Assembly: GCF_018336915.1 (NCBI RefSeq)
Contig: NZ_CP064923.1
Coordinates: 5,370,001-5,402,000 of the forward strand
DNA from: Acaryochloris marina S15
GTDB taxonomy: Bacteria > Cyanobacteriota > Cyanobacteriia > Thermosynechococcales > Thermosynechococcaceae
Length of the DNA: 32,000 nt
Direction of reading: 5' to 3'
Below the pieces are notes generated by a model. It did no database searches. It was not told where the DNA came from and was given only the letters and a program-made list of their open reading frames with translations. The translations under genes and the position numbers were made by a program. Positions within the stretch are counted from its first letter, which is position 1; each line of letters starts with the position of its first letter. This document shows, in pieces, positions 3,268 through 32,000 of this stretch.

Positions 3268-3717
3268 TTAGCTGAGGGCCGCATGGGAGCGATCATAGCT
3301 CCTGCGGAAACTAGGATGGACTTTGCCTTGAATATGATTCCAGTATTGAGCCGCATCCGCACTTAACCCGACTTCAGCTGCAGAGCGACTGAGCAGAGCT
3401 TGCTGGCGATTCTTGATCCAGCGGTGGTGGGATGTCATCAAGGACCGAGCCATATTTTGGACAGTCAAGACAGCAGGTGCAGCTACAGGTGTCGTAGGTG
3501 CTGGGGTATAGGTGGGGGTCACTTCTGACTCTGGGGTGCCTGTTTCATAGGCGACGCCCCGGTAAACCAAGTTAAGACTGGGTTGCATTACCGGGGTTTT
3601 GTGAGCATTTCTAAAGCGCCACTCCAATCCTCGATACTGACCGACTTCTTCACTAGAAGTCATATCCACTTCAGGGGGATTGTATTCGTAGCTAACACCG
3701 CGATAGGTAAGATTCAT
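3268..3717 (-). CDS. DUF4278 domain protein
   Basis: N-terminal MNLTYRGVSYEY and a repeated YRGxxY/W motif (QYRGLEWRF, LVYRGVAYE), typical of the cyanobacterial DUF4278 family as I recall it. Confidence 0.65.
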   Translation of the reverse strand: MNLTYRGVSYEYNPPEVDMTSSEEVGQYRGLEWRFRNAHKTPVMQPSLNLVYRGVAYETGTPESEVTPTYTPAPTTPVAAPAVLTVQNMARSLMTSHHRWIKNRQQALLSRSAAEVGLSADAAQYWNHIQGKVHPSFRRSYDRSHAALS

Positions 3718-3998
3718 GATTCGCCTCCGATCATAATGATGGGTATAGATTTGAGGCGCGTTCCTTCGAGCGAAGGCTCTACTTCCGTCCCTTGATTACT
3801 AAGAACAGGGTTAAAAACGATTTAAGGGATGAACGATTTAATTTCTGTATCAACCATAACATTTTTAAGTAGAATTTGGGCCATTTCACAAAAGTAATCA
3901 TTAGAATTACTTATTGAAAGTGCCGTTTAGAATGAATATATCCGTATCGTTCTTCCCCAGGTGATAATCTAAAGAGTCGTTTTCTGCTGCTCTCCTTC

Positions 3999-8403: not shown

Positions 8404-9072
8404 ATGGCTGAACCTAACCGCCAATCCTGGGATGCAGGCCGCTTCCTGCAAACTCTGTCCTACTTTGAAGAAATTCCTGTTCTCAACTGGTTTCAAAAAA
8501 TGATGCCTGGATTTACGCCCCCTGCCCCACCTCCTGTTCAAGCCAACCTCATTTTTGACTTTAGCCAAGCCAATGATATTAGCCAGCTCTGGGGAGCGGT
8601 GGATGATGTGGTTATGGGAGGGGTGAGCAATAGTGGTTTGCGGCAAGAGTCAGGAGTTGCCCTGTTTACGGGGAATGTCTCGACGGCCAATTCCGGTGGG
8701 TTTGCCTCGGTACGCACGCGCAATTTTGATCCGCCCCTAAACCTATCGGCCCATCAAGGTATTGAGCTACAGGTGAAAGGGGACGGCCAACGCTACAAGT
8801 TTTTGCTGCGCGATCAGGATCGATGGGATAGTATTGCCTACTCCCACTCTTTTGATACGGTGGCTCAACAATGGATTACGGTTCGTATTCCCTTTAACCA
8901 ACTCACCCCTGTGTTTCGGGCCAAGACGGTGAATGATGCGCCTTTGATTGAGTCTCAACAAATTCGAGCCATGCAAATGATGTTGAGTAAGTTTGAATAT
9001 GATGGGGCTTTGAATCCTCGGTTTAGTCCAGGTGAGTTTCGACTGATAATTAAAACGATTGGTGTGTATTGA
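8404..9072 (+). CDS. CIA30 family protein (complex I intermediate-associated protein 30-like)
   Basis: WGAVDDVVMGGVSNSG...FTGNVSTANSGGFASVR...RYKFLLRD...W matches the CIA30 pattern. I chose ATG 8404 because the listed start 8263 overlaps the antiporter by 86 nt. Confidence 0.8.
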   Translation: MAEPNRQSWDAGRFLQTLSYFEEIPVLNWFQKMMPGFTPPAPPPVQANLIFDFSQANDISQLWGAVDDVVMGGVSNSGLRQESGVALFTGNVSTANSGGFASVRTRNFDPPLNLSAHQGIELQVKGDGQRYKFLLRDQDRWDSIAYSHSFDTVAQQWITVRIPFNQLTPVFRAKTVNDAPLIESQQIRAMQMMLSKFEYDGALNPRFSPGEFRLIIKTIGVY

Positions 9073-10459: not shown

Positions 10460-11851
10460 ATGACCCTACCATCGCAATTGCTAACCGTGCTAGCCCATGA
10501 CGAATTTCTAGAACAAACTGAAGCACTCAAAGTATCAACCAGCCTGAGTCAGATGGTTTATATCGTTCTGCAAATGGGCTTGTTTCTAGCTCGCTGTCTT
10601 CTGGAGGATGAACTCTCAAGGCGCGCGAAAGCAGTATTTGTATGGCCTGTATGTACTACCTGCGGAACCCGCTTACATTCGAAGGGATGGGAATCTCGTC
10701 AGATGCAGACACTGGTAGGCACTATCTCTTGAAAGCGACGGGTGGGCCGTTGTCCCAAAGGATGTCCAGGCAGTCTGTTGACTCCCCTGGATCAAGCCAT
10801 TGGGATTGCCCCCTATCAGCACAGCAGCGAAGAACTGGTGCGTCTGGGCTGCTTGTTGAGTCTGTTCATGCCCTATGAACTGGCCAGTTGGATGCTGGGT
10901 CAGTGGAGTGGTCTATCCGTGAGTCCATCCAGTTTGTGGAACTGGGTGCAATCCGTGGGTAACAAAGCTCAGCAGGAATTAGAAGCTCAACTCAACGCTC
11001 AATCATCAGGGACTCAGGCCCCTTGTGAAGCGATTTCAGAGATGTTATCTGCTCTACCTTTGGCCATTGCCGCCGATGGTGTGATGGTCCCCTTTCGCCC
11101 CACCCCGAACTCACCCAAGGGAAAAATCCAGTGGCGAGAAGTCAAAGTCGCCATCTTAGCTCGCCTGGGAACACGGGTTACCCGAGCTAAAAAGGAGGTC
11201 CCCCAATTACTGCGTCGAAGACTGGTGGCAGTATTGGGCGATATCGACCAGTTCATCCCTTTACTTCAACTCGAAGCTCACAAACAAGACTTTGAATCTG
11301 CTCCAAAAGTCATCTGGCTCAGTGATGGGGGACGAGGCTTCTGGCGAGTCTATCGCACCTTGTTCTCTCATTGTGCTGTGGCAGTCCTCGACTTTTTTCA
11401 TTCAGCAGGCCATCTGGCACGAGCAACTAAAGCGATGTTTGGAGATGCCCGCTCTGCTCAAGCCCAAGCCTGGTTCCGGCACTGGCGACACCAATTGCGA
11501 CACGGGCAACACCTACTTGTATTACGGTCCTTGACGATATTGATTCACTCACAACTGTTAACGGGAAAGTCTTTTTCAACGTTGCTCCAGGTGCAGGCTT
11601 ATTTCCAACGCCATCATAACCACATCCGTTATCGGCACTTTGAACAGCAACAGATTCCTCTCGGGTCAGGAATGGTTGAAAGTGCATGCAAGTGGTTGAT
11701 TCAGCAGCGCTTTAAGGGAGTTGGCATGCGCTGGAGTGAGGATGGTTTCAACCATTTACTGATCTTGAGAATTGCCTGGGTCAATGAACGGTTTGACTCC
11801 TTATTCCCAGAGGTGACCATTCCGAAAACTAAGGCATCCCCGATCCGCTAA
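10460..11851 (+). pseudogene. ISKra4/ISLre2-like DDE transposase interrupted by one in-frame TGA (10730-10732)
   Basis: Listed ORFs 10460..10732 and 10742..11851 share a frame: ...CTTCGTRLHSKGWESRQMQTLVGTIS*KRRVGRCPKGC... Downstream motifs are WLSDGGRGFW, DFFHSAGHL and GSGMVESACKWLIQQRFKGVGMRWS. IS termini were not identified. Confidence 0.75.
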
Positions 11852-13125: not shown

Positions 13126-13833
13126 TTGCCCAAACGCGCTCAATCTTCTTTTAGACTTCGCTCTTGGAAATCACCACGAACCTTGGGATGGGTGGTTTTG
13201 GGAGTGAGTGCAGTGGCGATTGGCATAAAAACTTGGGGTGCGCCTCAGACTGGACCTGCTCCTAGGCAGGCCATCTTGCCTGTGGCTACTTTGGCACTGC
13301 AGCCGTCTACCTTCTATGACATTCAGCGCACCTACGCGGGGGAAGTCCAGGCAAATCGCACCAGTGAATTGGGGTTTGAGCTGACGGGGACCTTGATTGA
13401 GATTGCTGTGGATGAAGGGGATTGGGTGCAGCAAGGTATGCCCCTAGCTCGTTTGGATACTCGTAGCTTAGCCGCTCAACGCCAGCAGCTTTTGGCTCAA
13501 AAAGCCCAGGCCCAAGCCCAGTTCCGAGAGCTAAAAACAGGACCGAGAACGGAAGAGATTGGAGCGGCTCGGGCTGCCGTTGAAGATTTAGGACAGCAGC
13601 GCTTGTTGGCAGAAAAGCAAAGTAAACGCCGCCAAGAACTCTATGAAAAAGGGGCTATTTCCCGCGAGGCTTTTGAAGAACGATATTTTGCCGCTCAAGC
13701 ATTGAAAAAACGCCAGGGCCAAGCTCACAAACGGTTAGAAGAATTGCTAGCGGGGACACGGGTGGAGCAGGAAAAGTCAGATCAGAAATCTCGTCAATAT
13801 CAGCCTGAGACGGTAGTTGCGATCTCAGCTTAG
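13126..13833 (+). pseudogene. HlyD-family periplasmic adaptor (membrane fusion protein), 3'-truncated
   Basis: Has an N-terminal TM segment, a lipoyl-like hairpin (GTLIEIAVDEGDWVQQGMPLARLD) and a coiled coil. Family-like sequence stops near GTRVEQ (~13770) and the ORF ends at 235 aa. No beta-barrel or MPD domains, and no pump gene follows. TTG start. Confidence 0.7.
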
Positions 13834-13917
13834 GGATGAATGAGGCAGGTTGGCCAAGGCTGGGATGGGGGTCTGAACCAGCTCGACATTTATCTTGGCA
13901 ACATCTCAAATCAGTAG

Positions 13918-13927
13918 GTTCTATTAG
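13918..13927. repeat. target-site duplication (left) of the ISAs1-family element
   Basis: GTTCTATTAG abuts the left IR. An identical 10-mer abuts the right IR at 15258-15267. Confidence 0.85.
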
Positions 13928-15257
13928 CAGGGTAAGCGCAAGAAAATCAAGCCTCTGAAAGGCTAGACTGTAAAGGAATAGAAGCGCCTAGAACTTTGAG
14001 CATATACGCTTCATCCATGCTCGCCCGTTTTAGTTTTTGACGGGTACTTTTCTTAAAGGACGTTTCTTGATTGAGAAGGTTGATGCTCCAGCGCCTCAGG
14101 ATGGCCATGTTTTCCGGTGCATGTCCTGTGCGAATGCGGCTAGCATCTTCGCCAAAGGTCACATCTAAGACCCAGTGGAGTTGGTTCTCAATCGACCAAT
14201 GCTGGCGGATGGCTTTGCCCAACTGCTGAGCATTTGGCGGTAGAGAGCTGATATAAAACATCACCTCATAGGTGGTTTTGTTCCACAAGTGGCGGGTCCG
14301 AGCGACCTTGACGATGGTTTGCAAGCCCTTCCACTGCGCCTGCTTGTAGAGAGGACCCATCTGTTGAAGGGACACGGCCCAAACTTGTCGTTTCTCGCGA
14401 CGATGGTGCCCTGCTTCCACCCGGGCATCATAGCTGTGCTCAATGCCCTTAAACTCATTCGCTTCAGCCGTTTCAAACCATTGCTCAACCTGCTCAAACA
14501 GCGTGGGATGATTCTCCTTGAGGGCCAGCACATAGTCAGCCTCTTTAGCTTGAATGTGGCGGGCAATCTCGTGCTGAGTTCCCATTGCATCAATGGTAAT
14601 AATGCACCCGGCAATGTCTAATAGCTCTAGCAGTGCTGGAATAGCGGTAATTTCGTTACTCTTGTCTGCAACTTTGACCTGTCCTAGAAATAACCGATAC
14701 TCACTGGCCCAAGCACTGACCAGATGCAATGCGGATTGGTCTTGATTGCGATCATAGGAACCTCTGAGTTGTTTGCCGTCAATCGGTATCACTTGAGCGC
14801 CGAGGGTTGTCACTACCTGATCCAACCAGTGATTGAAACTCCGCTCAAAAGCGGAGGGGCAAATACGCTCAAACACTCGTCGATAGGTGTCTGCTGTCGG
14901 TATCCCGGACGGTAGCCTCAGAAAACTCGACAACCAATCTTGATGGCTTAGACCATAGGTTTCAATGTCTTCCCACCCTTGTGCGCCACCTAAACTTGCC
15001 AATAGTCCAATCACGACGATGCTGACAAACGGATGCTGGACACCTTGGCCTCCACGTGGATCAGGCAAATCTTCAAAACACTCGGACAATTGTTGATAAG
15101 CCTGATCGCAATCACTGGCAGGCAGGAGTGACGAGGATGAGTCAGTGGAAGCTGGTGAGGAAGGAGGCTTGCTGAATCCTGTAGCCATGGGGAAACCCTT
15201 TTAACAGAATGGAGTTCCAAAGCATATTACAGCTTCATTTTTCTTGCGCTGCCCCTG
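13928..15257 (-). mobile_element. complete ISAs1-family insertion sequence (1330 bp)
   Basis: Terminal IRs are CAGGGTAAGCGCAAGAAAA (13928-13946) and the reverse complement of 15239-15257, CAGGGGCAGCGCAAGAAAA (17/19 match). Single transposase ORF, flanked by the 10-bp direct repeat GTTCTATTAG. Confidence 0.88.
13947..15188 (-). CDS. ISAs1 family transposase
   Basis: 413 aa. The N-terminal block DPRGGQGVQHPFVSIVVIGLLASLGGAQGWEDIETYG (DDE_Tnp_1-associated) and the core ITIDAMGTQ...HWSIENQLHWVLDVTFGED are typical of ISAs1/H-repeat proteins. Confidence 0.88.
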   Translation of the reverse strand: MATGFSKPPSSPASTDSSSSLLPASDCDQAYQQLSECFEDLPDPRGGQGVQHPFVSIVVIGLLASLGGAQGWEDIETYGLSHQDWLSSFLRLPSGIPTADTYRRVFERICPSAFERSFNHWLDQVVTTLGAQVIPIDGKQLRGSYDRNQDQSALHLVSAWASEYRLFLGQVKVADKSNEITAIPALLELLDIAGCIITIDAMGTQHEIARHIQAKEADYVLALKENHPTLFEQVEQWFETAEANEFKGIEHSYDARVEAGHHRREKRQVWAVSLQQMGPLYKQAQWKGLQTIVKVARTRHLWNKTTYEVMFYISSLPPNAQQLGKAIRQHWSIENQLHWVLDVTFGEDASRIRTGHAPENMAILRRWSINLLNQETSFKKSTRQKLKRASMDEAYMLKVLGASIPLQSSLSEA

Positions 15258-15267
15258 GTTCTATTAG
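15258..15267. repeat. target-site duplication (right) of the ISAs1-family element
   Basis: GTTCTATTAG, identical to 13918-13927. Confidence 0.85.
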
Positions 15268-15343
15268 ACCTGCGGAACACTTTGTTTTAGATTGCCAGTG
15301 AGGTGACTGTTACGTCTTTAGAGACGTTACTTAGAGATGCTCC

Positions 15344-16123
15344 ATGCCACGTCATCCGCGAACGCTGAAACCTAGCTATTGCTATCACATCACCACCCGC
15401 TGTAATAATCGTGACTTTCGGTTAGTGCGGGAAGAATGTCGGGATGTTTTGCTCTATGCCATTCATAAATGCCAGGTCAAATATGGTTTTAAGCTGTATG
15501 CCCTCTGCATTATGAGCAACCATGTCCATTACCTGTTGGAACCTGCCCAGCCCCAGGACCTGCCCAAAATCATGCACTGGCTGAACTGGTATACGGCCAT
15601 GTGTTTTAACCGGATGCTCAATCGCAGTGGGCACTTCTGGGAAAAGCGCTATCACAGCACGGGGTTTCCGAATACGGATAAGCGACGGGCGTTGAATACG
15701 CTGCGGTATATCCATGCCAACCCGAAAGCGGCGAAGATGCAGCAGGGCTTTTTCTATGATTACAGCAACTATGGCAGCTATGAGCGGCTAACCAATGACG
15801 GAATTAGCCAATGGCATCCAGCTTTTCTGGCGTTGGGAGCGACAATTGAAATTTGTGCTCGGGCTTATCGGCGCTTTTGCCAGCGGTACAAGCCCAAGCC
15901 CAAACCACCCAAGCGCATTTATTGGGGCACGAACCTATTGGCGAAGTTGAGGTTAAAGCGGAAAGTCCATAAACCATCCCCTGGACAAACTCGGTTGCCT
16001 TGGGATGATTGGGATGGGGTAGACCCAGAGATTCAGGCAGTGGCGATGAAGTTTGTGTTGGCAAATTGCTTAAACCCGGAGGTGGTGAAGACTCGATATG
16101 AGCCTGATTTTATACAGTTATAG
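15344..16123 (+). CDS. IS200-like Y1 (HUH) transposase, RAYT-like
   Basis: HUH motif SNHVHYLL and catalytic-Tyr motif LRYIHANP. N-terminal YHITTRCNNRDF. 259 aa. Small hairpins lie at both ends: ACGTCT-TTAG-AGACGT at 15312-15327 and GACTGT-N8-ACAGTC at 16221-16240. Confidence 0.8.
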   Translation: MPRHPRTLKPSYCYHITTRCNNRDFRLVREECRDVLLYAIHKCQVKYGFKLYALCIMSNHVHYLLEPAQPQDLPKIMHWLNWYTAMCFNRMLNRSGHFWEKRYHSTGFPNTDKRRALNTLRYIHANPKAAKMQQGFFYDYSNYGSYERLTNDGISQWHPAFLALGATIEICARAYRRFCQRYKPKPKPPKRIYWGTNLLAKLRLKRKVHKPSPGQTRLPWDDWDGVDPEIQAVAMKFVLANCLNPEVVKTRYEPDFIQL

Positions 16124-16239
16124 ATAAAAAATTGGGTTTGCTAGGTGCCAGGTAAGGAATCGCTAAAAGGACGGGTTTTATGTTGATCTGAATGTGGAAA
16201 TGAAATTTAAAAATGCTCAGGACTGTCTCGTGCTACAGT

Positions 16240-18504
16240 CTACAAGTCTTTGCGCGAGAGAAGAGATTGCGCGAGAGAAGAGAGAATACCCAACGGTAAT
16301 TCTCCCTCAAATCCAAACGGTAATTCTCCGTCAAGAGAATTTTCGAGATCGTATGTTGGATTTTGCCACTTGCCATTGTTTGTCCAGCCGATGCGATCGC
16401 AGAACGTTCTTGTAAACTCATTGTAATCTGTCGGGCTTCCGCACTCTTCCCAAATCCGTTTTTGAACACTAAAGCCCCACTTGCCATCGCTGTACTTAAC
16501 CCACAGACGATCCAGCATTTGCAAATCGTCGCAGGGAAAAGTCTTTAGGTCATCGCTATTCAAATATTGCCCTTCTTCTTTCCCCACGGTGGTAATCATC
16601 AACCGATAGGTCTCCTGGTCGGCTTCACGCCATTGTTGGGTTTGTAGAAGCGTCTCTAGGTTGGCATATCGAGACGTTTCAACTTGGGAGGTAGTTTTTT
16701 CAAATGCAGCCAATTCCTCTGCAGTTAAGTCCAGCCGTTTGGTAGTGTCTTGCTGGATGGTATAGGCCAAATCAATGGCCTCTTGGCGCAAAGCTTCCCG
16801 AATCAATGGCGTAGGGTTGACCTGGGAGGCATAGAGCAAAATCGTCTGTTTCCACCAATCATTCTGGAGATGTTTATAAAGCAACGCTTCTTGCTTATCA
16901 TCAGCAATCTGAGTGGCAGCCAAATACTCTTGCAAACTGAGATGAGCGAACTCAAATTCACCCAATTCCCGCTCTACCAGCAATTCGCTAATTTGCACCA
17001 CTTCTGCCAAGAAATTCTTTTGTTCAACTTGTTCCTGTTGCAGTTTTATATATTTCTTGATTCGTTCCTCTAGGTCAGAGTGACCCAACCGCTCCTCATG
17101 GGCTTCCATCATGGATAACGCCAACCGTTGCAAGATAAGCTGGGCTTCACAATCGATTAAACAAGTCTTCAGCTTTCGTGCCCTTGGCCGGTCTCGAAGC
17201 TGTAACGTACAAATCTCTCGATATAGTTCAACCCTGCGTTTAGGTAACTCTGCGCCGGGATATCGCCAATGGAACGACACAATCATATTCAGCAAGAGTG
17301 GATTTCTGGCTAAATCCTTCAGCTCTTGCCGCGCTTCAATTTGGGTTAGCAGTTCCTCAGCGGCAGTTTTTGCAGCATGCTCAACGTCGGGAGTCAACTC
17401 TCCCCCACTGGCATATTGCTCTTGGTACAAATACCAATTCTCTACAAAATTTCGGCGTTGGGATTCGCTAAAGTCTTGCACCCAAAGGATAGGAAGTTCC
17501 AATCGGTCGACTAGCTCCTGATCTTTATAGGCTTTAGGACGTGAAGTGACTATAAATACTGATTTGCTGTAATGGCGCATCTGATCATTAATCCATCGAG
17601 CCACCACCGGACGTTGCCCAGAGGCCACCTCATCGAAGCCATCCAGCATTACCACTGCTTCACCTTGATTAAGCTTCTTTTTAACCCAATCTTTTGGTAA
17701 ATCAGCTAACTTATCAAAATCCGGCAAATCTGGAATATGGTGATTTCTAATCAACTCCGGTAAAGTCGGTGGTTGCTCTTGAGCCAATAGGTCTCGATGT
17801 TTACGCAGCACCAGCAAAAAAGGGACTCGTCTGGGTACACCGTATTTACCTTGTTGGTTCATGCCATAGGTATAGGCAATATGCTTTAGCAGCGTCGTTT
17901 TGCCATAACCACCCCAAGCCAGTACCCCAATTTGGCTGTGGGTCATGAAGTTTGAGTCTTTCCAGGTCTTACTCAGAAAATCCCAAATTTCACTCTCCTG
18001 CATCTCATTAAAGGAAAGCTTTGTAGGATGTTGCATAGGAGACTCTCTCAAACCCGACGGTAAGGAGTTCCGGTCCAATTGCAAAGGAACATAAATCTCC
18101 TCCAGTAGAGGCCGGAAAATGCCATCGTGTTGAATCACCCCTTCAGATTTCTGGCGACGGCAAGCCCAAGCTTGACATCGAAAATACTGTTCTTCTACGC
18201 CACTAACTTTAGCAATGCCATGATCAATCGCTTTATTGGCTGCTTCTCCTGCTTTTGTTAGGCGATCTTGAGTACCTTTATGAACCGGGTTTAGCAAACT
18301 GGCTCCATAGGAAATCCCCAAACCAATCACCCCAGATGCCAAGGCTTTGGGGATATCACTATCATTGAACAGAGACCAAAACGCACCTGCTCCACCTACC
18401 GTCACCCCGCCTGTCCGTACTGCTTTAACAACAACATCTGCAATCTGGTCACTGAGAGAAACCTTAGCTTTAGGTTTTGGAGTAGGTTTATCAGTCTTGG
18501 TCAT
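16240..18504 (-). CDS. NACHT-family STAND NTPase with hydrophobic Gly-rich N-terminus and C-terminal GUN4-like domain
   Basis: Walker A AWGGYGKTT (nt 17893-17913), Walker B VVMLDGFDE (17629-17655) and the NACHT WH motif FAHLSLQEYLAA. Two Gly/Ala-rich hydrophobic segments at aa 31-71. C-terminal LDRLWVKYSDGKWGFSVQKRIW...DRIGW...GELP matches the GUN4 signature (nt ~16300-16671). Confidence 0.85.
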   Translation of the reverse strand: MTKTDKPTPKPKAKVSLSDQIADVVVKAVRTGGVTVGGAGAFWSLFNDSDIPKALASGVIGLGISYGASLLNPVHKGTQDRLTKAGEAANKAIDHGIAKVSGVEEQYFRCQAWACRRQKSEGVIQHDGIFRPLLEEIYVPLQLDRNSLPSGLRESPMQHPTKLSFNEMQESEIWDFLSKTWKDSNFMTHSQIGVLAWGGYGKTTLLKHIAYTYGMNQQGKYGVPRRVPFLLVLRKHRDLLAQEQPPTLPELIRNHHIPDLPDFDKLADLPKDWVKKKLNQGEAVVMLDGFDEVASGQRPVVARWINDQMRHYSKSVFIVTSRPKAYKDQELVDRLELPILWVQDFSESQRRNFVENWYLYQEQYASGGELTPDVEHAAKTAAEELLTQIEARQELKDLARNPLLLNMIVSFHWRYPGAELPKRRVELYREICTLQLRDRPRARKLKTCLIDCEAQLILQRLALSMMEAHEERLGHSDLEERIKKYIKLQQEQVEQKNFLAEVVQISELLVERELGEFEFAHLSLQEYLAATQIADDKQEALLYKHLQNDWWKQTILLYASQVNPTPLIREALRQEAIDLAYTIQQDTTKRLDLTAEELAAFEKTTSQVETSRYANLETLLQTQQWREADQETYRLMITTVGKEEGQYLNSDDLKTFPCDDLQMLDRLWVKYSDGKWGFSVQKRIWEECGSPTDYNEFTRTFCDRIGWTNNGKWQNPTYDLENSLDGELPFGFEGELPLGILSSLAQSLLSRKDL

Positions 18505-18643
18505 AGCTCTAGAAATATGGCACTGCTTTTAATACAAGACAAAACTTTTTCAGCTAGCTAGGGGTATGTTTTTTAGGAGAGCACGACTCCTCACAATTAG
18601 ATCCGATGTTTTTCTAGTCAACAGTCTCAATTATGCTGCATTT

Positions 18644-18705
18644 GCCCCCTAAATCCCCCATTCTGGGGGACTTTGATTGTCGATCAATGCTTTGCTCACT
18701 CGCAT
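18644..18705. repeat. duplicated copy of the DUF559 gene 3' end (62 bp)
   Basis: 18644-18705 equals 18735-18796 with one mismatch (18663 c versus 18754 t), at a 91-bp offset. Weaker similarity continues for ~25 nt. Confidence 0.85.
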
Positions 18706-18731
18706 GTCTGATTTTGCCAACATCTTCTGTA

Positions 18732-19184
18732 TTAGCCCCCTAAATCCCCCATTTTGGGGGACTTTGATTGTCGATCAATGCTTTGCTCACTCGCATATCG
18801 GATTTGCTGAAGTACATGATCTAGGTGGTGCATGACGTCTGAGTTATGGAATCGGATCACTCGGTAACCTAGCTGGTTGAGCTGCTCGGTACGGGCTTGA
18901 TCATACTCCACCTGCTGATTGTGGATGTCGCCGTCTAGCTCAATCACTAACCGGCATTGGGGACAGTAAAAATCGACAATGAACGAACTAATGGCGTGTT
19001 GACAGCGGAATTTCAGGCCGCTGAGTTGACGTTTTTGCAGTGCTTTCCACAGCTTTTGTTCGGCTGGTGTCAGATTGAGTCTTAGTCGTCGTGCGGCGGC
19101 AACGACTGCTGGAGTCGTGCCGCGAATGCGGTGGTGTTGCGTTGGCTTCTCTCGCATCTTGTTACCCCCAACCCTGTCTCCCAT
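18732..19184 (-). CDS. DUF559 (Vsr/restriction-endonuclease-fold) domain protein
   Basis: LTPAEQKLWKALQKRQLSGLKFRCQHAISSFIVDFYCPQCRLVIELDGDIHN...GYRVIRFHNSDV is the DUF559 pattern. The last 11 codons (KSPKMGDLGG) are encoded by the 33-bp repeat. ATG 19184 lies inside repeat sequence, so M10 (19157) may be the true start. Confidence 0.8.
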   Translation of the reverse strand: MGDRVGGNKMREKPTQHHRIRGTTPAVVAAARRLRLNLTPAEQKLWKALQKRQLSGLKFRCQHAISSFIVDFYCPQCRLVIELDGDIHNQQVEYDQARTEQLNQLGYRVIRFHNSDVMHHLDHVLQQIRYASEQSIDRQSKSPKMGDLGG

Positions 19185-19235
19185 CTAGGATCATCATAAA
19201 TCTCAAAGTCCCCCAAAATGGGGGATTTAGGGGGC
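18735..19235 (-). mobile_element. candidate IR-bounded cassette carrying the DUF559 gene (501 bp)
   Basis: Perfect 33-bp inverted repeats: GCCCCCTAAATCCCCCATTTTGGGGGACTTTGA (18735-18767) and its exact reverse complement (19203-19235). Further copies lie at 18644-18676 (1 mismatch), 19395-19427 and 19587-19619. No target duplication could be identified. Confidence 0.4.
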
Positions 19236-19724
19236 AAATTCAGGGTTTAACTAGGCTTCCAAACCAACTTCTCAACCCAGCTCATGATGACGGCAGAGAG
19301 TGATAGCTTCAATTGTTGTCCTGTAACTGAGGGCGCTGCTTTATTGTGTTCTAGCCATCTCCTGAAGGTCTCCCATCGAGGATAATCATAAATCTCAAAG
19401 TCCCCCAAAATGGGGGATTTAGGGGGCAAATTCAGGGTTTAACTAGGCTTTCAAAACAACTTCTCAACCCAGCTCATGATGACGGCAGAGAGTGATAGCT
19501 TCAATTGTTGTCCTGTAACTGAGGGCACTGCCTTATTGTGTTCTAGCCATCTCCTGAAGGTCTCCCATCTAGGATCATCATAAATCTCAAAGTCCCCCAA
19601 AATGGGGGATTTAGGGGGCAAATGCAGGGTTTAACTAGGCTTTCAAAACAACTTCTCAACCCAGCTCATGATGACGGCAGAGAGTGATGGCTTCAATTTT
19701 TATCCTATAACTGAGGGCACTGCT
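19176..19724. repeat. tandem array, 192-bp unit x ~2.86 copies
   Basis: The landmark TCTCAAAG recurs at 19201, 19393 and 19585 (period exactly 192). Units are 19176-19367, 19368-19559 and 19560-19724 (partial), with only scattered substitutions. Each unit contains one 33-bp element. Confidence 0.9.
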
Positions 19725-27880: not shown

Positions 27881-28295
27881 CTTCCTGACCTACTTATAGT
27901 CTCATTTGCTTATGGGAACAGTATGGAATTCCTAGCTGAGATCAGCCTGAAAAATGTATTAGATTATACTAATTTACTTTATCTAAGTTTACTGTTACCC
28001 CCAAAGTAAGCGCTTAGAGAGCAGCCAGGACTGACATCATTTTATAGATAAAATCTTGAATTTTACCCATTCTCGGCAGTATTCAGCATTTTTGTCGACA
28101 AGCTGTTTTTCTCCCCTTTAGACCCTGCAATTAAGCGTCGAAAGCTGACTTTAGAGTGGGAATCATAACGATATAGAAGGTCTGATTACGGTCTAGCCAT
28201 AGCTGGTGGCCAAACCTCTCTTCAAACGATTGCAGTCTGTCAGTTTTGAGGGGCGAAGGATCAGCCTATCCATCATTTATCTTGTCTAGATCTTA

Positions 28296-31200
28296 ATGAA
28301 AACATCGGTAGAACTCTCCCAGTCTGTCTTTGATCGTCTATTTGCCTTAATGGAGCAAGGGTTCTATCTCCAGGCCTATGAATTATGCCAATCCGTTGAC
28401 CTGCTCGCGACCCGGCAAGACACAGCGACCCAAATTTTGGCAGGCCGACTAGTCGGGTATCTGGGGGCACCCCGACAGCGAGCTGCTGTATTACTTCGAG
28501 CCTGGCGACAGAATCCTACCGATCCAGACGCCTTGTATTACTACATCAGTACAAGGCTTTGGCGGCAGGGTCCCTTAGCTGCCTATCGTCTAATCCAAAA
28601 GTACCAACCGCAGTTTGAGCGCTTCACACCGGACCAACAAGCCCATTGGCTGGGGTTAAAAGCCCAGGTGGTTTTAGAATTCCGAGACTTTGATCGAACG
28701 GATGCCTATCTCCAAGAGGCAGAAACCCTAGCCCCAGACGATCCTTGGATCACCCTTCTCCGGTCTCGTCTGTTGGAGCAAGAAGATAACTATCCAGAGG
28801 CCTTGGCCATGACCCAACAGGCCTTGGCACAGCGCCCCTGGTATCGCCCTGCTGTATTGACAGCAGCCCATTTACATACCCTCTTAAGCCAAGATGACCA
28901 GGCACTGCACCTACTGCAGCAGGCCACTACTCAGCTCGAAAGTGGTGAGCTTTGGGCCCAATTGGCTGCACTTCAACTGGAGTTAGGGCAGTATGCCCAG
29001 GCTCAACACAGTTATCAGCAATATGAACAAGCCTGCCCACTCCTAGAGAAGGCAGGGCAAGCCCGACTGTGGTCCGCCCAAGCTGACATTGCTTATCAGA
29101 TGGCGGATTTTAATCACGCCCATCACTTGGCTCAGAAATTGGCGGAGTATCCCTACTACCAGTCCTTAGCCCAACGCTTGCTGGATTTACCCGAGGGGAA
29201 ACGGGTGATTTTGCCCGTCGGTTTTGTGCGCCAACACCACATGACTTGTGCCCCCGCCACATTGACCACCCTTTGTGCCTATTGGGGCATCTCGGTGGAT
29301 CACCATCAGATTGTGGACAGCATCTGCTACAACGGTACGTCTAGCTATAGTGAGCGGGACTGGGCCAGTCAACAAGGATGGGCGGTCTGCGAATTTACGG
29401 TTACCTGGGACAGCATTATCCAGCTGATTGATGCAGGCGTTCCTTTTACCCTCAGTACCGTTGAAGCCACATCAGCCCACTTACAGGCCGTGATTGGTTA
29501 TGACAGCCGATTGCAAACCCTCATGATTCGTGACCCTTACCACCGGGGTATTGTTGAACCCTGGGCGGAGGAGTTTCTAGAGCGGTATCGGGCATCCGGT
29601 CCCCGAGGCATGGTCATTCTTCCTGCTAAGAAAGCGGGACTACTAGAAACCCTAGAACTTCCTGACAGCCGTCTTTACGATCAGCTCCACGATCTACAAG
29701 CAGCGCTGCTCAAACATGATCGCTCCACAGCCAGTGACTGGAGCCAACGGATGAATGGGGTCGCTCCTCACCATCGCCTTGCCCTCCAGGCTCAGTTCGA
29801 GCTGGCTTACTATGATTCTGACCAAGCCAGTGGTTTGACCGTCATAGAACAAATGCTGGAGCAGTTTCCTGCTGCCCCACAGCTAATGTTGCAGAAACTT
29901 CAATACTTACAGGAACTGGCCAGCCGCCAAGATTGCCTCGATTGGCTCGCCCATATGATTGAGCAGGACCAGTTCCATCCCATTTTTTGGACTCGGCTAG
30001 CCAAACTCTTCAGTGACGATGCCAAGGCGAGTGAATCAGCCATTGGTCTGCTGCTGCGGTCTATCGGTGCAATGCCGACGGAAGCCTATAACTACTTTTT
30101 ATTGGCTAACCTGTATTGGTCACAACGCCAGTTTGACCTAGCCCTGGACTTATATCGGTTTGCAGCCTGTCTAGAAGATAAGGAGCAAACCTATGGCCAC
30201 AGCTATTTTCTGGCAGCTCGGGGCTGTCGACAAACGTCTGTGGCCTTACAGCTCTTACAACAACGGTGGCACCGGGACCAAAAGCAGTCGACCCGTCCTG
30301 TTTATGCTTTGGCTATCGCCTATGACCATTTAGATCGCCCGTCCGAAGCCATAGAGGTTTTGGAACAAACCCAAGCCTGGCACCCGGACGATGGCGATTT
30401 ACTGTTATATCGGGCCAAGTACCTGGGCGAGCATGGTCAGTTTGCCCAAGCCCATACCCTGCTAGACGAGGCCAAAGCCAAAACAGCCCATAGTCATTGG
30501 TTAAGTACGGCTGCCAAACTCGCGCAGTTTGAATACAAGCCTGACAAAGCCCTCGACCTATGGCAACAGCTCGTCACAGCCGATCCTTTGGATATCGAGG
30601 CGAATCGCGCTGTCAGTCAACTGTTAGCAGAACAGGAAGGAGTCACTGCCGCCCGTGAGTTTTTAGCAGCCACCTGCAGCACCTTCCCTGACCATGCCGG
30701 GTTACATCACCTCTGGTATGAACAGGTGCAAGAGGGAGATCCGATCGTCGCAGAACAGGTGCTGCAACGACTGGTGGAGATTAACCCTAAAGACGCTTGG
30801 TCCTGGCGACAGATTGCCTGGCAATTGGGTCGACAACAGCAGCTAGAGGCAGCATTTGAAACCTGCGAAACCGCTCAGCACCTAGATCCTCACAGCACGG
30901 CCTATTTCACCATCTATGGGTGTCTCTGCATTTTGGCAAAAGACATGCCCACCGCTAAGACCGCGTTTAAAGAGGCGATTCAACGGTCTGTAGACTCTAG
31001 CCGAGCCATCTCAGAACTGATGGATATTTGCCAGTCCATAGAAGAACAAAAAGACGTTCTCGACTTTATCTTTCAAGAGTTTCAGCAACAGGTGATTACG
31101 GGGGATAGCCTGTTCACCTTTTATCAATACGCTCGCACTGTCTTGACGCCCGCAGACTTTGATCAACGCATACAAGAAGTTCATGCCGCTCGGCCCGATT

Positions 31201-32000
31201 TATGGCAGGCCTGGACCGTCAGGAGTCGGCAGCTCCTCAGCAGCGACCGAACAACGGAAGCCTTGGCAATTGCAGGGGAAGCAGCGGAGCGCTTTCCCCT
31301 CTTACCCAGAGTTTGGGTGGATTTAGCGATCGTGCATCGTACCCGCAAGGATGATGAGGCAGAAGAACAAGCCCTGCAAACCGCTTTACGAATTAATCCC
31401 GGGTGGGACAGCGCCATTCAACAGTTGGCGGATCTTTATGACCGCACTGATGCTCTAGACAAATGCAAAGCCCTGTTAGAAACAGCCCTGATGCATTCAC
31501 CCCTGGAGGCCTATCTTCATGGCTATCTTGCAGATGCACTGTGGAAACTGGATGGCCAAGAGACCGCACTGCAGCACTTACAGAAGGCCCTTCGCCTTGA
31601 TTCTAACTATGACTGGGGATGGAACAAGTTAAGAGAATGGGCTCAAGCATTGGAGCGTCTGCATCTAACCGCAGATCTGGCTCGGGAGCTAACAGTCACT
31701 CGATCGGGAGAGGCCCAATCCTGGTTGCGGTTAGCTGAGCACCTGGCCGAGGAGGACACGCTGGATGAACGGCTTGCTGCTGTAGATCAGGCGATTGAGC
31801 TCAATCCTTGCTATTGGGATGCCTATGATTTGAAGGCTCGGGTGTTGGCAGCCGCGGAGCGATTTGAGGATGCGATCGCAACCTGTACTCCCACCCAATT
31901 AGATGATGACTTACCCGTATCCTTGGCAGCTCGGGCCGCTTGGATTAAATACCAGCAAGGCAAGTTTGACGAGGCCATCCAAGACATGCAGGCTGTGGTT
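28296..32000 (+). CDS. large TPR-repeat protein with embedded C39-like (papain-fold) cysteine peptidase domain; 3' end outside window
   Basis: Not in the ORF track. ATG at 28296, then 1235 sense codons to base 32000 with no stop; frame spot-checked at 29247, 30000 and 30960. The peptidase-like block is aa ~300-445 (nt ~29193-29630): VRQHHMTCAPATLTTLCAYWG (Cys318, nt 29247-29249), SAHLQAVIGYD (His395, nt 29478-29480), IRDPY (Asp413). TPR-like helical repeats lie on both sides. Confidence 0.85.
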   Translation, partial: MKTSVELSQSVFDRLFALMEQGFYLQAYELCQSVDLLATRQDTATQILAGRLVGYLGAPRQRAAVLLRAWRQNPTDPDALYYYISTRLWRQGPLAAYRLIQKYQPQFERFTPDQQAHWLGLKAQVVLEFRDFDRTDAYLQEAETLAPDDPWITLLRSRLLEQEDNYPEALAMTQQALAQRPWYRPAVLTAAHLHTLLSQDDQALHLLQQATTQLESGELWAQLAALQLELGQYAQAQHSYQQYEQACPLLEKAGQARLWSAQADIAYQMADFNHAHHLAQKLAEYPYYQSLAQRLLDLPEGKRVILPVGFVRQHHMTCAPATLTTLCAYWGISVDHHQIVDSICYNGTSSYSERDWASQQGWAVCEFTVTWDSIIQLIDAGVPFTLSTVEATSAHLQAVIGYDSRLQTLMIRDPYHRGIVEPWAEEFLERYRASGPRGMVILPAKKAGLLETLELPDSRLYDQLHDLQAALLKHDRSTASDWSQRMNGVAPHHRLALQAQFELAYYDSDQASGLTVIEQMLEQFPAAPQLMLQKLQYLQELASRQDCLDWLAHMIEQDQFHPIFWTRLAKLFSDDAKASESAIGLLLRSIGAMPTEAYNYFLLANLYWSQRQFDLALDLYRFAACLEDKEQTYGHSYFLAARGCRQTSVALQLLQQRWHRDQKQSTRPVYALAIAYDHLDRPSEAIEVLEQTQAWHPDDGDLLLYRAKYLGEHGQFAQAHTLLDEAKAKTAHSHWLSTAAKLAQFEYKPDKALDLWQQLVTADPLDIEANRAVSQLLAEQEGVTAAREFLAATCSTFPDHAGLHHLWYEQVQEGDPIVAEQVLQRLVEINPKDAWSWRQIAWQLGRQQQLEAAFETCETAQHLDPHSTAYFTIYGCLCILAKDMPTAKTAFKEAIQRSVDSSRAISELMDICQSIEEQKDVLDFIFQEFQQQVITGDSLFTFYQYARTVLTPADFDQRIQEVHAARPDLWQAWTVRSRQLLSSDRTTEALAIAGEAAERFPLLPRVWVDLAIVHRTRKDDEAEEQALQTALRINPGWDSAIQQLADLYDRTDALDKCKALLETALMHSPLEAYLHGYLADALWKLDGQETALQHLQKALRLDSNYDWGWNKLREWAQALERLHLTADLARELTVTRSGEAQSWLRLAEHLAEEDTLDERLAAVDQAIELNPCYWDAYDLKARVLAAAERFEDAIATCTPTQLDDDLPVSLAARAAWIKYQQGKFDEAIQDMQAVV

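Follow-up and report, generated by a model that had tools for sequence, protein, structure and literature searches.

STAND NTPases of the bNACHT and Avs types reportedly have an antiphage role, in work attributed to Kibby et al. 2023 and Gao et al. 2022. Here we describe a gene for an NLR-like STAND NTPase with a GUN4-like C-terminus, in which the ligand-contact segment of the GUN4 fold has been replaced by a hypervariable tract (HVR), and its association with a conserved 123-nt element and a convergent gene of the HUH/Y1 superfamily (hereafter Y1). All four lie in a stretch of 32,000 nucleotides from the cyanobacterium Acaryochloris marina S15 (assembly GCF_018336915.1, contig NZ_CP064923.1, positions 5,370,001 to 5,402,000 of the forward strand), which we call the window and number from its first letter. 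An initial annotation of the window had read the gene as a phage-defence protein and its neighbours, including the transposase-like gene, as the usual surroundings of a defence island.

In diversity-generating retroelements (DGRs), the initiation of mutagenic homology (IMH) marks the 3' boundary of the variable region. DGR targets in cyanobacteria include kinase, caspase and TIR fusions (PMC7517822). RAYTs, which belong to the HUH/Y1 enzymes, cut single-stranded DNA at CT dinucleotides located 5' or 3' of a bulged hairpin under the guidance of GTAG, keep the 5' end covalently on their tyrosine and join any attacking 3'-OH to it (PMC8266576). TnpA_Y1 subclass 2.1 comprises low-copy proteins without REP sequences and with no known function (Quentin et al. 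2018, PMC6006769). For GUN4, the motif LxNxLR lies against the bound bilin or porphyrin and is absent from GUN4 paralogs (PMC10156173). Finally, Vassallo et al. 2022 (PMC9519451) describe PD-T4-6, an anti-phage Ser/Thr kinase of E. coli, and of its domains mention the kinase only.

The ligand-contact segment of the GUN4-like domain is replaced by a hypervariable tract

The gene, its 3' end and the convergent Y1 gene are arranged as follows.

16240..18504, minus strand: NACHT-GUN4-like gene encoding an NLR-like STAND NTPase, ATG start, 754 aa (list of open reading frames (ORFs), Pfam NACHT and GUN4)
16318..16680, minus strand: GUN4-like core domain, aa 609-729, ending in GELP (aa 726-729), the equivalent of the canonical GHLP
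16284..16317, minus strand: hypervariable tract, 34 nt, 71% G+T by hand count, C-poor, at the site of the canonical LxNxLR
16267..16283, minus strand: tandem copy of the element's first 17 nt, TCTCTTCTCTCGCGCAA (repeat search, 100% identity)
16144..16266, minus strand: conserved 123-nt element (nhmmer), overlapping the stop codon at 16240-16242 and bounding the tract on its 3' side
16221..16240, minus strand: imperfect hairpin within the element, GACTGT / ACAGTC, with GTAG in and beside the 5' arm (DNA fold -4.0 kcal/mol)
15344..16123, plus strand: RAYT-like HUH/Y1 gene, 259 aa, convergent (Pfam Y1_Tnp)

Pfam assigns aa 609-721 of the protein to GUN4 (E 2.7e-32), and a phmmer search finds the solved GUN4 structures 7e2r, 1z3x, 1y6i and 4ykb, in agreement with the GUN4-like C-terminus proposed by the initial annotation. 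In the phmmer alignments, the canonical C-terminus reads GHLP-LTNALRG-TQLLKCV-LSHP in 7e2r (Arabidopsis) and, with 1z3x (T. elongatus) included, follows the pattern GHLP-LTNALRG-xQxLxxx-LSHP. The alignments of our family to these structures end at GHLP. In place of an LxNxLR motif directly after GHLP, the protein in the window has GELP followed by FGFEGELPLGILSS..., and the position of the LxNxLR segment is taken by the variable tract, which starts right after the Pro of GHLP. Because the segment has been swapped for hypervariable sequence, the sensor domain is not a tetrapyrrole-binding GUN4, and the earlier suggestion that it senses a porphyrin or bilin is not supported.

Downstream of GHLP, the family proteins vary in both length and sequence, but their last residues follow one of three short conserved patterns, SLLSHxDL, LFSRxxTCxL or SSLAxRLVxC, which a DNA alignment of the 3' ends of 28 loci identifies as a single DNA block read in three frames. 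The tract between GHLP and this block is 0-192 nt long, with a median of 52 (54 loci), and its length falls into all three classes modulo 3 (11, 26 and 17 loci, n = 54). In this strain it contains a tandem duplication of 22-24 nt, such that GELPxGxx occurs twice (16289-16310 and 16313-16334). The pooled tracts consist of G, T, A and C at 0.40, 0.32, 0.16 and 0.12, respectively; 17/53 have a G+T content of at least 85%, some of 97-100%, compared with 0.516 +/- 0.045 for the 120 nt of coding DNA upstream. At codon positions 1, 2 and 3 the G+T content of the tract is 0.70, 0.70 and 0.74, indicating that the bias acts at the level of nucleotides, since it is equal over the three positions; the same equality excludes amino-acid selection as the source of the G/T richness. 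Pure G/T DNA cannot hold a stop codon, and each of the three frames meets a stop within the element (TGA, TAG, and TAA/TAG further on), so that a pure-G/T tract yields a complete ORF at any length.

Comparison of closely related alleles reveals how abruptly the tract changes. In six pairs of loci with 95-100% identical tract-adjacent flanks, the tracts are unalignable, and their boundaries are sharp, with the Pro codon on one side and position 1 of the element on the other. Members of one cluster formed at 90% identity (P0095) are near-identical over about 700 residues and wholly different after GEFP, using all three frames; an Acaryochloris-like cluster at the same identity level has a similar tail pattern, with more variation elsewhere. 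Four alleles of one syntenic locus, which share an upstream Pyridox_oxase_2 gene and are 99.0-99.7% identical over the first 1950 nt, carry an identical element preceded by four unrelated tracts of about 34-50 nt with zero C. By the evidence of these alignments, the tract is replaced at the level of strains, between sharp boundaries.

Several sources of such variation were considered and set aside. Transition hypermutation (C>T together with A>G) was rejected on hand comparison of the tracts at loci L111 and L112, which have no common purine/pyrimidine pattern. A shared cassette pool or gene conversion was rejected on the longest substrings common to different tracts, which are at most 16 nt against 12-16 nt in shuffled controls, although the test is weak because the sample spans different genomes. 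Regarding a DGR-like template, no repeat copy of the tract is present within 13800-19300.

A conserved element of 123 nt lies 3' of the tract

A CT-rich region, TCTCTTCTCTCGC..AGACTTGT, opens the element, which continues with the imperfect hairpin and an AT-rich spacer and ends in the invariant block TACCTGGCAC(C). Its very start, TCTCTTCTCTC, is a run of CT dinucleotides, and GTAG or GTAA is found at the hairpin. In an alignment of 65 copies, the start and end blocks are invariant across genera and similarity stops abruptly outside both ends; each locus (10-20 kb) contains one copy. Read in frame 0, the start encodes SLLSHPDL, matching the canonical GUN4 ending LLSHP. The element has arisen over the final codons of the GUN4 domain. 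The hairpin consists of six pairs with a central T:T mismatch and is paired in 82% of cases, compared with 23-53% for slid controls; its pairs show 21 double-change cells, and 0/500 shuffles reach the observed value. A search of 16000-16400 against Rfam, with gathering thresholds and with E <= 10, returned no credible family for the element, and its exact pattern is absent from the viral contigs searched.

The 5' part of the element is partially duplicated at three independent loci (the window, L113 and L145), which fits break-and-rejoin events. Among these is one of the four near-identical alleles, which has an adjacent Y1 gene and carries a 43-nt partial duplicate of this 5' part.

Some loci show further peculiarities of the element. 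At L141-L144, independent metagenome contigs stop 77-270 nt past the stop codon of the GUN4-like gene, inside or just past the element, and these ends fit a repetition of the element within the genome, or population heterogeneity, that breaks the assemblies. Other GUN4-like genes, at L042 (A. marina MBIC11017) and L040, retain recognisable, though decayed, traces of the element and of the frame-specific tails; the module seems to date back to an ancestor shared by much of the GUN4 'paralog' clade, with piecemeal loss since. Two loci, L117 and L113, have two GUN4-like ORFs within a few kb and a single Y1 gene, the second ORF of L117 having a truncated element, which hints at one Y1 serving several targets.

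Y1 is linked to the 3' ends of GUN4-like genes

The Y1 proteins form a family of about 255 aa in which the HUH motif SNHVHYL and the tyrosine motif RYIHANP (Y122) are invariant, the mean column identity across genera is 76%, and the homologues share a conserved C-terminal extension of 130 aa. The best curated family is NCBIfam REP_Tyr_transpos (E 6e-19, 68.3 bits), with a score below the cut-off of 80, and the match to the transpos_IS200 equivalog (23.6 bits) is far below its cut-off of 55. In other genera, homologues that are 60-75% identical to the Y1 of the window lie convergent and downstream of NACHT-GUN4 genes. The gene facing Y1 encodes GUN4 alone in Microcoleus, a caspase-GUN4 protein in Oscillatoria and a NACHT-GUN4 protein in Leptothoe, in all cases in convergent orientation. 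Degraded Y1 remnants or pseudogenes occur at some further loci.

To quantify the linkage, we used 80 metagenome loci fetched with Y1 and three context look-ups, and counted those with a flank of at least 300 nt for the element or at least 800 nt for the GUN4-like ORF. A single element copy, lying antisense immediately downstream of Y1, is present at 53/60 loci, and a convergent GUN4-like ORF at 43/48; the five loci without GUN4 also lack the element. The GUN4-like hosts are between about 210 and 1035 aa long and contain TIR, Peptidase_C14 (caspase), several types of NACHT, AAA_35 or no other Pfam domain. The initial annotation had listed Y1 as incidental insertion sequence (IS) context, a view which these counts contradict: judged by gene neighbourhood, they show Y1 to be a conserved partner of GUN4-like 3' ends across cyanobacteria. 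Of the hallmarks of IS200/IS605 elements, the HUH and Tyr motifs are found and the two subterminal hairpin ends are not. The 220 nt upstream of Y1 are unalignable across 28 loci, with only close relatives such as L093 and L094 aligning, and a two-ended IS structure is absent because there is no conserved DNA upstream of Y1.

In Oscillatoria sp. FACHB-1407 (L059), a Pepco (PF24393) gene at 8414-8764 directly precedes the Y1-linked caspase-GUN4 gene, and toxin-antitoxin pairs (ParE, PIN/PhdYeFM) are located on the far side of Y1.

The sensor is carried by an NLR-like STAND NTPase

Upstream of the GUN4-like domain, the protein is composed of the following parts.

16735..18099, minus strand: NACHT NTPase module, aa 136-590 (Pfam, invariant motifs; predicted local distance difference test (pLDDT) of the AlphaFold2 (AF2) model mostly 80-95)
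17893-17913, minus strand: Walker A GGYGKTT, G198-T204, with K202
17629-17655, minus strand: Walker B VVMLDGFDE, with D288, G289, D291 and E292
aa 447-557, 3' of the Walker motifs within the NACHT module, minus strand: winged-helix/helical region, DUF7755-like (sub-threshold DUF7755 match)
18100..18504, minus strand: family-specific N-terminal module, aa 1-135 (cross-genus conservation)
18289-18414, minus strand: two Gly/Ala/Ser-rich hydrophobic segments, aa 31-72

The 754-aa protein is identical to a recorded 'GUN4 domain-containing protein [Acaryochloris marina]' and has more than 900 cyanobacterial homologues, each of about 750 aa. In an alignment of 40 of these, from several genera and with 51-82% full-length identity to the query, Walker A GGYGKTT, Walker B VVMLDGFDE and FAHLSxQEY are all invariant. 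Pfam places NACHT at aa 199-357 with 47.5 bits, above the cut-off of 26.7. The AF2 model has a mean pLDDT of 72 and a predicted template modelling score of 0.68; it is confident for aa ~170-720, with pLDDT <50 for aa 723-754 and most of aa 1-100. Foldseek with this model returns NLRC4, NLRP3 and NOD2 as top matches (best E 5e-11). With P-loop motifs, an above-threshold profile and a nucleotide-binding, helical and winged-helix domain fold, the gene product is a cyanobacterial NLR-like STAND NTPase with a GUN4-like C-terminus, and we treat this architecture as an observed fact. The three-part 754-aa ORF at 16240-18504 and the NACHT module with its Walker A (K202) and Walker B motifs had thus been correctly recognized from the start, as the ORF list, Pfam, the motif conservation and the match of the AF2 model to NLRC4, NLRP3 and NOD2 agree. 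The gene had also been described as AT-richer than the core genes; the difference is modest, with a GC content of 0.456-0.467 compared with about 0.49-0.53 for most of the window. Its likeness to NLR-like conflict proteins is borne out by the match to the PD-T4-6 profile (see below) and by the fusion of the GUN4-like module elsewhere to TIR and caspase domains.

The Gly-rich segments of the N-terminal module are kept across genera, with G37, I60, G61 and P73 invariant. No Pfam or NCBIfam model covers aa 1-135, and a search of this region against 1.84 billion cluster representatives gave only 51 matches, all of them N-terminal. Eight of the 51 were scanned with Pfam, of which six contain NACHT (four also GUN4), one a STAND NTPase and one no domain. 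A wider family for the module was rejected on this search, in which the Pfam-positive proteins scanned are all NACHT or STAND. The hydrophobicity of the two segments is marginal, with Kyte-Doolittle maxima over 19 residues of 1.32 and 1.14. A crude sum on the Hessa scale gives +4.8 kcal/mol for the best N-terminal 19-mer (family median +4.1), compared with -3.1 for MFS, -0.55 for the Na/H exchanger and +2.4 for the best rhomboid helix from the same window. A constitutive transmembrane anchor at the N-terminus is unlikely. The module is possibly a conditionally exposed membrane-active or self-associating segment; it is a candidate effector or a candidate hydrophobic hairpin exposed by oligomerisation. 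From the membrane-helix proposal of the initial annotation, the Gly-rich segments at aa 31-72 stand, and insertion into a membrane is decided neither way by the marginal hydrophobicity and the pLDDT of <50 over most of aa 1-100.

A partner gene of the amyloid-signalling (BASS/Bell) type was also considered and set aside. Upstream of NACHT-GUN4 lies DUF559 here and Pyridox_oxase_2 in L141, and L060 has no same-strand gene there; as this position varies between genera, no upstream partner is conserved.

Genomic context

The neighbourhood of the gene contains the following mobile or nuclease features.

18732-19184: DUF559 (Vsr-like nuclease) ORF
13928-15257: IS of the ISAs1 family with 19-nt terminal inverted repeats (13928-13946 and 15239-15257), ending 87 nt upstream of the start of Y1
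13947-15188: ISAs1 transposase
10742-11851: ISKra4-family transposase ORF

Ordinary chromosomal genes (dnaG, hisIE, MFS, FHA proteins, Na/H exchanger and others) occupy the left part of the window. On its upstream side the gene is flanked by DUF559, an unknown protein of 402 aa, a rhomboid and a response regulator, and on its downstream side by Y1, the ISAs1 element, HlyD-like and PadR genes and the ISKra4 transposase. The neighbours named by the initial annotation (Y1, a nuclease cassette and ISs) were all located, as Y1_Tnp, DUF559, ISAs1 and ISKra4; the ISAs1-family IS and the ISKra4 transposase are the true IS elements of the region. The DUF559 ORF is bracketed by 41-nt inverted repeats (18727-18767 and 19203-19243), with a further direct copy at 18636-18714, and 18636-19243 looks like a small cassette, resembling a miniature inverted-repeat transposable element, that carries this ORF. 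A DUF559 homologue of 90% aa identity is found upstream of NACHT-GUN4 in A. marina MBIC11017 (L008), and in L021 DUF559 is on the opposite side of the homologous gene.

The upstream flank is syntenic in MBIC11017, with 90-96% aa identity for DUF559, the 402-aa protein, the rhomboid and the response regulator. The NACHT-GUN4 proteins of the two strains are only 80% identical, indicating that this gene evolves faster than its surroundings. At the NACHT-GUN4 locus of MBIC11017, Y1 and the distal part of the element are missing.

PADLOC applied to ten neighbours found nothing beyond weak nuclease-fold matches of DUF559. With this result and the syntenic upstream flank, the locus is not a recognisable defence island, contrary to what had been proposed. 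For the protein itself, the bNACHT and Avs models of PADLOC 2.0 gave no match at E <= 1, so that the earlier assignment to these families finds no support from their profiles; there was a weak P-loop match to mad8. The sole strong match is PD-T4-6, of which profile positions 240-423 of 450 align to aa 542-729 (E 2.6e-36).

Elsewhere in the window, a glutamine riboswitch (RF01739, 51.8 bits) at 3755-3837 (-) lies directly upstream of a 149-aa DUF4278 ORF at 3268-3717 (-), an arrangement known from gifB/IF17, the inactivating factor of glutamine synthetase. At 28290-32000 (+), an ORF longer than 1237 aa runs past the end of the window.

A possible mechanism of tract replacement

Considered as a whole, the observations are best explained by a Y1-linked system for rewriting the ligand-contact loop in immune-type sensors, a reading we hold tentatively, at a little under an even chance. 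In its specific form, which is conceivable but on which we would place less trust, a domesticated RAYT-like HUH/Y1 protein and its 123-nt recognition element would constitute a non-retroelement diversity generator, repeatedly opening the coding strand at a fixed junction in the GUN4-like sensors of NLR-, TIR- and caspase-type proteins and closing it once untemplated G/T-rich DNA has been inserted; the resulting junctional diversity of the ligand-contact loop would be a bacterial analogue of N-region addition. We propose nicking and rejoining of the RAYT type because the element has a CT run and GTAG/GTAA at an imperfect hairpin. We infer that Y1 has a role in the variation, in which it would recognise the imperfect hairpin on single-stranded DNA, nick the run of CT dinucleotides at the 5' edge of the element and stay covalently on the 5' phosphate. 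The 3'-OH end of the coding strand would then be resected and refilled with untemplated, G/T-biased DNA by some polymerase activity, the presumed source of the G/T-rich DNA, and strand transfer by Y1 would reseal the junction. The outcome would be a new loop rich in Gly, Val, Trp, Phe, Cys and Leu, with an open frame at any length. In a putative immune or antiphage function, the diversified loop would recognise a variable set of ligands, probably of non-self origin, and NACHT would couple their binding to oligomerisation and to the activation of the N-terminal module.

A number of observations weigh against this mechanism or are neutral to it. Two clusters at 90% identity, P0017 and P0086, have invariant tails, and about two thirds of the alleles are out of the ancestral frame, which could reflect neutral decay rather than function. 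The tract of this strain, at only 71% G+T, looks shaped by duplication. RNAalifold predicts zero pairs for the 65 copies of the element, hence no global consensus structure, and the hairpin is weak across the family (mean -2.6 kcal/mol, z -0.6). Many element-bearing loci have no Y1 within 10 kb, so that Y1 would have to act in trans, and an adjacent Y1 makes no difference to the G+T purity of the tract (p = 0.6). The module has no linked candidate polymerase, and PADLOC gives no sign of antiphage activity for the NACHT-GUN4-like family. All the evidence is comparative; action of Y1 on the element and change of the tract within a clone are presumed.

Alternatively, Y1 and the 123-nt element may form a selfish IS200/REPtron-like element that homes to GUN4-like 3' ends, such that the tract, the frames and the duplications are scars of insertion and excision with no adaptive role. 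The membership of Y1 in the IS200/RAYT superfamily, the partial duplications of the element's 5' part at three loci, the decayed element remnants and Y1 pseudogenes, the use of three frames without preference and the frequent breaks of metagenome contigs inside or just after the element can all be accommodated in this way. Such an element, however, would be expected to have a second end, whereas none is conserved upstream of Y1, and each locus has a single element copy. Across genera, the Y1 proteins keep 65-78% identity and invariant catalytic motifs, and the gene is always found in the same convergent position. Excision of IS200/IS605 elements is precise and would not leave behind 30-190 nt of C-poor, G/T-rich DNA. 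In addition, the first codons of the element read LLSHP, pointing to an origin in place rather than by insertion. We therefore regard a purely selfish element as unlikely.

The tail after GHLP could also be a dispensable, disordered linker under relaxed constraint that changes by slippage, with the element acting as a bidirectional terminator or regulatory RNA of the convergent gene pair and Y1 domesticated for an unrelated role. Low-complexity G/T runs are prone to replication slippage, tandem duplications are found in and beside the tract of this strain, and the pLDDT is <50 for aa 723-754; likewise, no covarying global RNA fold was found and tract composition is uncorrelated with an adjacent Y1. 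Slippage would produce differences in length, but alleles that are 99.0-99.7% identical have tracts that are unalignable, those of L111 and L112 have no common purine/pyrimidine pattern, and the sharing of substrings is within chance. Neither the sharp boundaries, at the Pro codon and at element position 1, nor the lack of C in fresh tracts and the equal G+T bias at the codon positions is what a relaxed linker would lead one to expect, and a terminator would not usually be a 123-nt block whose ends are invariant across genera and which is linked to one gene family in 90% of cases. On balance, this explanation appears quite improbable.

Very doubtful, finally, is the model closest to the initial annotation, an abortive-infection NLR of a defence island that senses a porphyrin, bilin or phage protein through its GUN4 fold and kills the cell by inserting a glycine-zipper N-terminus into the membrane, with Y1 and the ISs being incidental: the tripartite architecture is real, PD-T4-6 aligns to the C-terminal region and the gene evolves faster than its neighbours (80% against 90-96% identity to MBIC11017), but LxNxLR is absent and replaced, the scanned neighbours include no defence genes and the upstream flank is syntenic, Y1 is not incidental, the N-terminal segments are less hydrophobic than bona fide transmembrane helices from the same window, and the element pattern is missing from viral contigs.

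Significance

Full-text literature searches retrieved no paper describing an association of GUN4-like proteins, Y1 and a hypervariable tract; no counterpart of the Y1-linked hypervariable sensor cassette was found in the searchable literature. It places a sharply bounded tract at the ligand-contact site of GUN4 and reuses the same module on NACHT, TIR, caspase and AAA_35 proteins. Should Y1 drive the variation, this would be the first cellular function for the 'REP-less' homologues of tyrosine transposases and a second bacterial route to programmed protein diversification, mechanistically unrelated to DGRs. In that case it would become testable whether the recognition diversity of bacterial NLR-type sensors is somatic or germline-only, and the pair of Y1 and element could serve as a tool for targeted diversification in vivo. 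Were Y1 to turn out irrelevant, an explanation would still be required for both the conserved element and the replacement-type variation.

Comparison with known systems

The protein is neither a GUN4 orthologue nor PD-T4-6. With GUN4, the Mg-chelatase cofactor, it shares the core fold and the sequence up to GHLP, whereas the N-terminal helical domain of GUN4 is lacking, LxNxLR is replaced by the tract and signalling or death domains are attached; the domain fits the 'paralog' class lacking Asn211 (PMC10156173). The C-terminal half of the PD-T4-6 profile aligns to the GUN4-like region (aa 542-729), and this validated defence family appears to share that region. PD-T4-6 has an N-terminal kinase, in contrast to the NACHT found here; the Pfam scan gave no Pkinase match, and the protein is not PD-T4-6 because it has no kinase domain. 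Like bNACHT and Avs proteins, it combines an N-terminal module, a NACHT/STAND NTPase with intact Walker A and B motifs and a C-terminal sensor. It differs from them in that the sensor is GUN4-like instead of being built from repeats, the N-terminal module is restricted to the family, and the sensor bears a hypervariable tract linked to an HUH gene.

With respect to the variation itself, the resemblance to DGRs is one of layout: localised hypervariation affects the ligand-binding domain at the C-terminus of multidomain signalling or conflict proteins, the variable region ends at a conserved sequence on its 3' side, and a dedicated enzyme gene is adjacent. DGRs use a reverse transcriptase and a template repeat and substitute at adenine sites at fixed length. 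Here, the enzyme is an HUH/Y1 nuclease-ligase, no reverse transcriptase domain is present among the scanned neighbours, and the changes affect length and frame with a G/T bias, so that the variation pattern fails every DGR criterion tested. The closest parallels to the enzyme and its putative site are found among the Y1 transposase homologues. The element shares with REPtrons (TnpA_REP/RAYT) an imperfect hairpin with GTAG/GTAA and nearby CT dinucleotides, although Y1 scores 68 bits against the cut-off of 80, no REP arrays were seen, and the single 123-nt element is one-sided and joined to the stop codon of one protein-domain family. The Y1 protein fits TnpA_Y1 subclass 2.1 in its NHVH, WE and YIHANP motifs, its size of about 255 aa, its long C-terminal tail and its low copy number.

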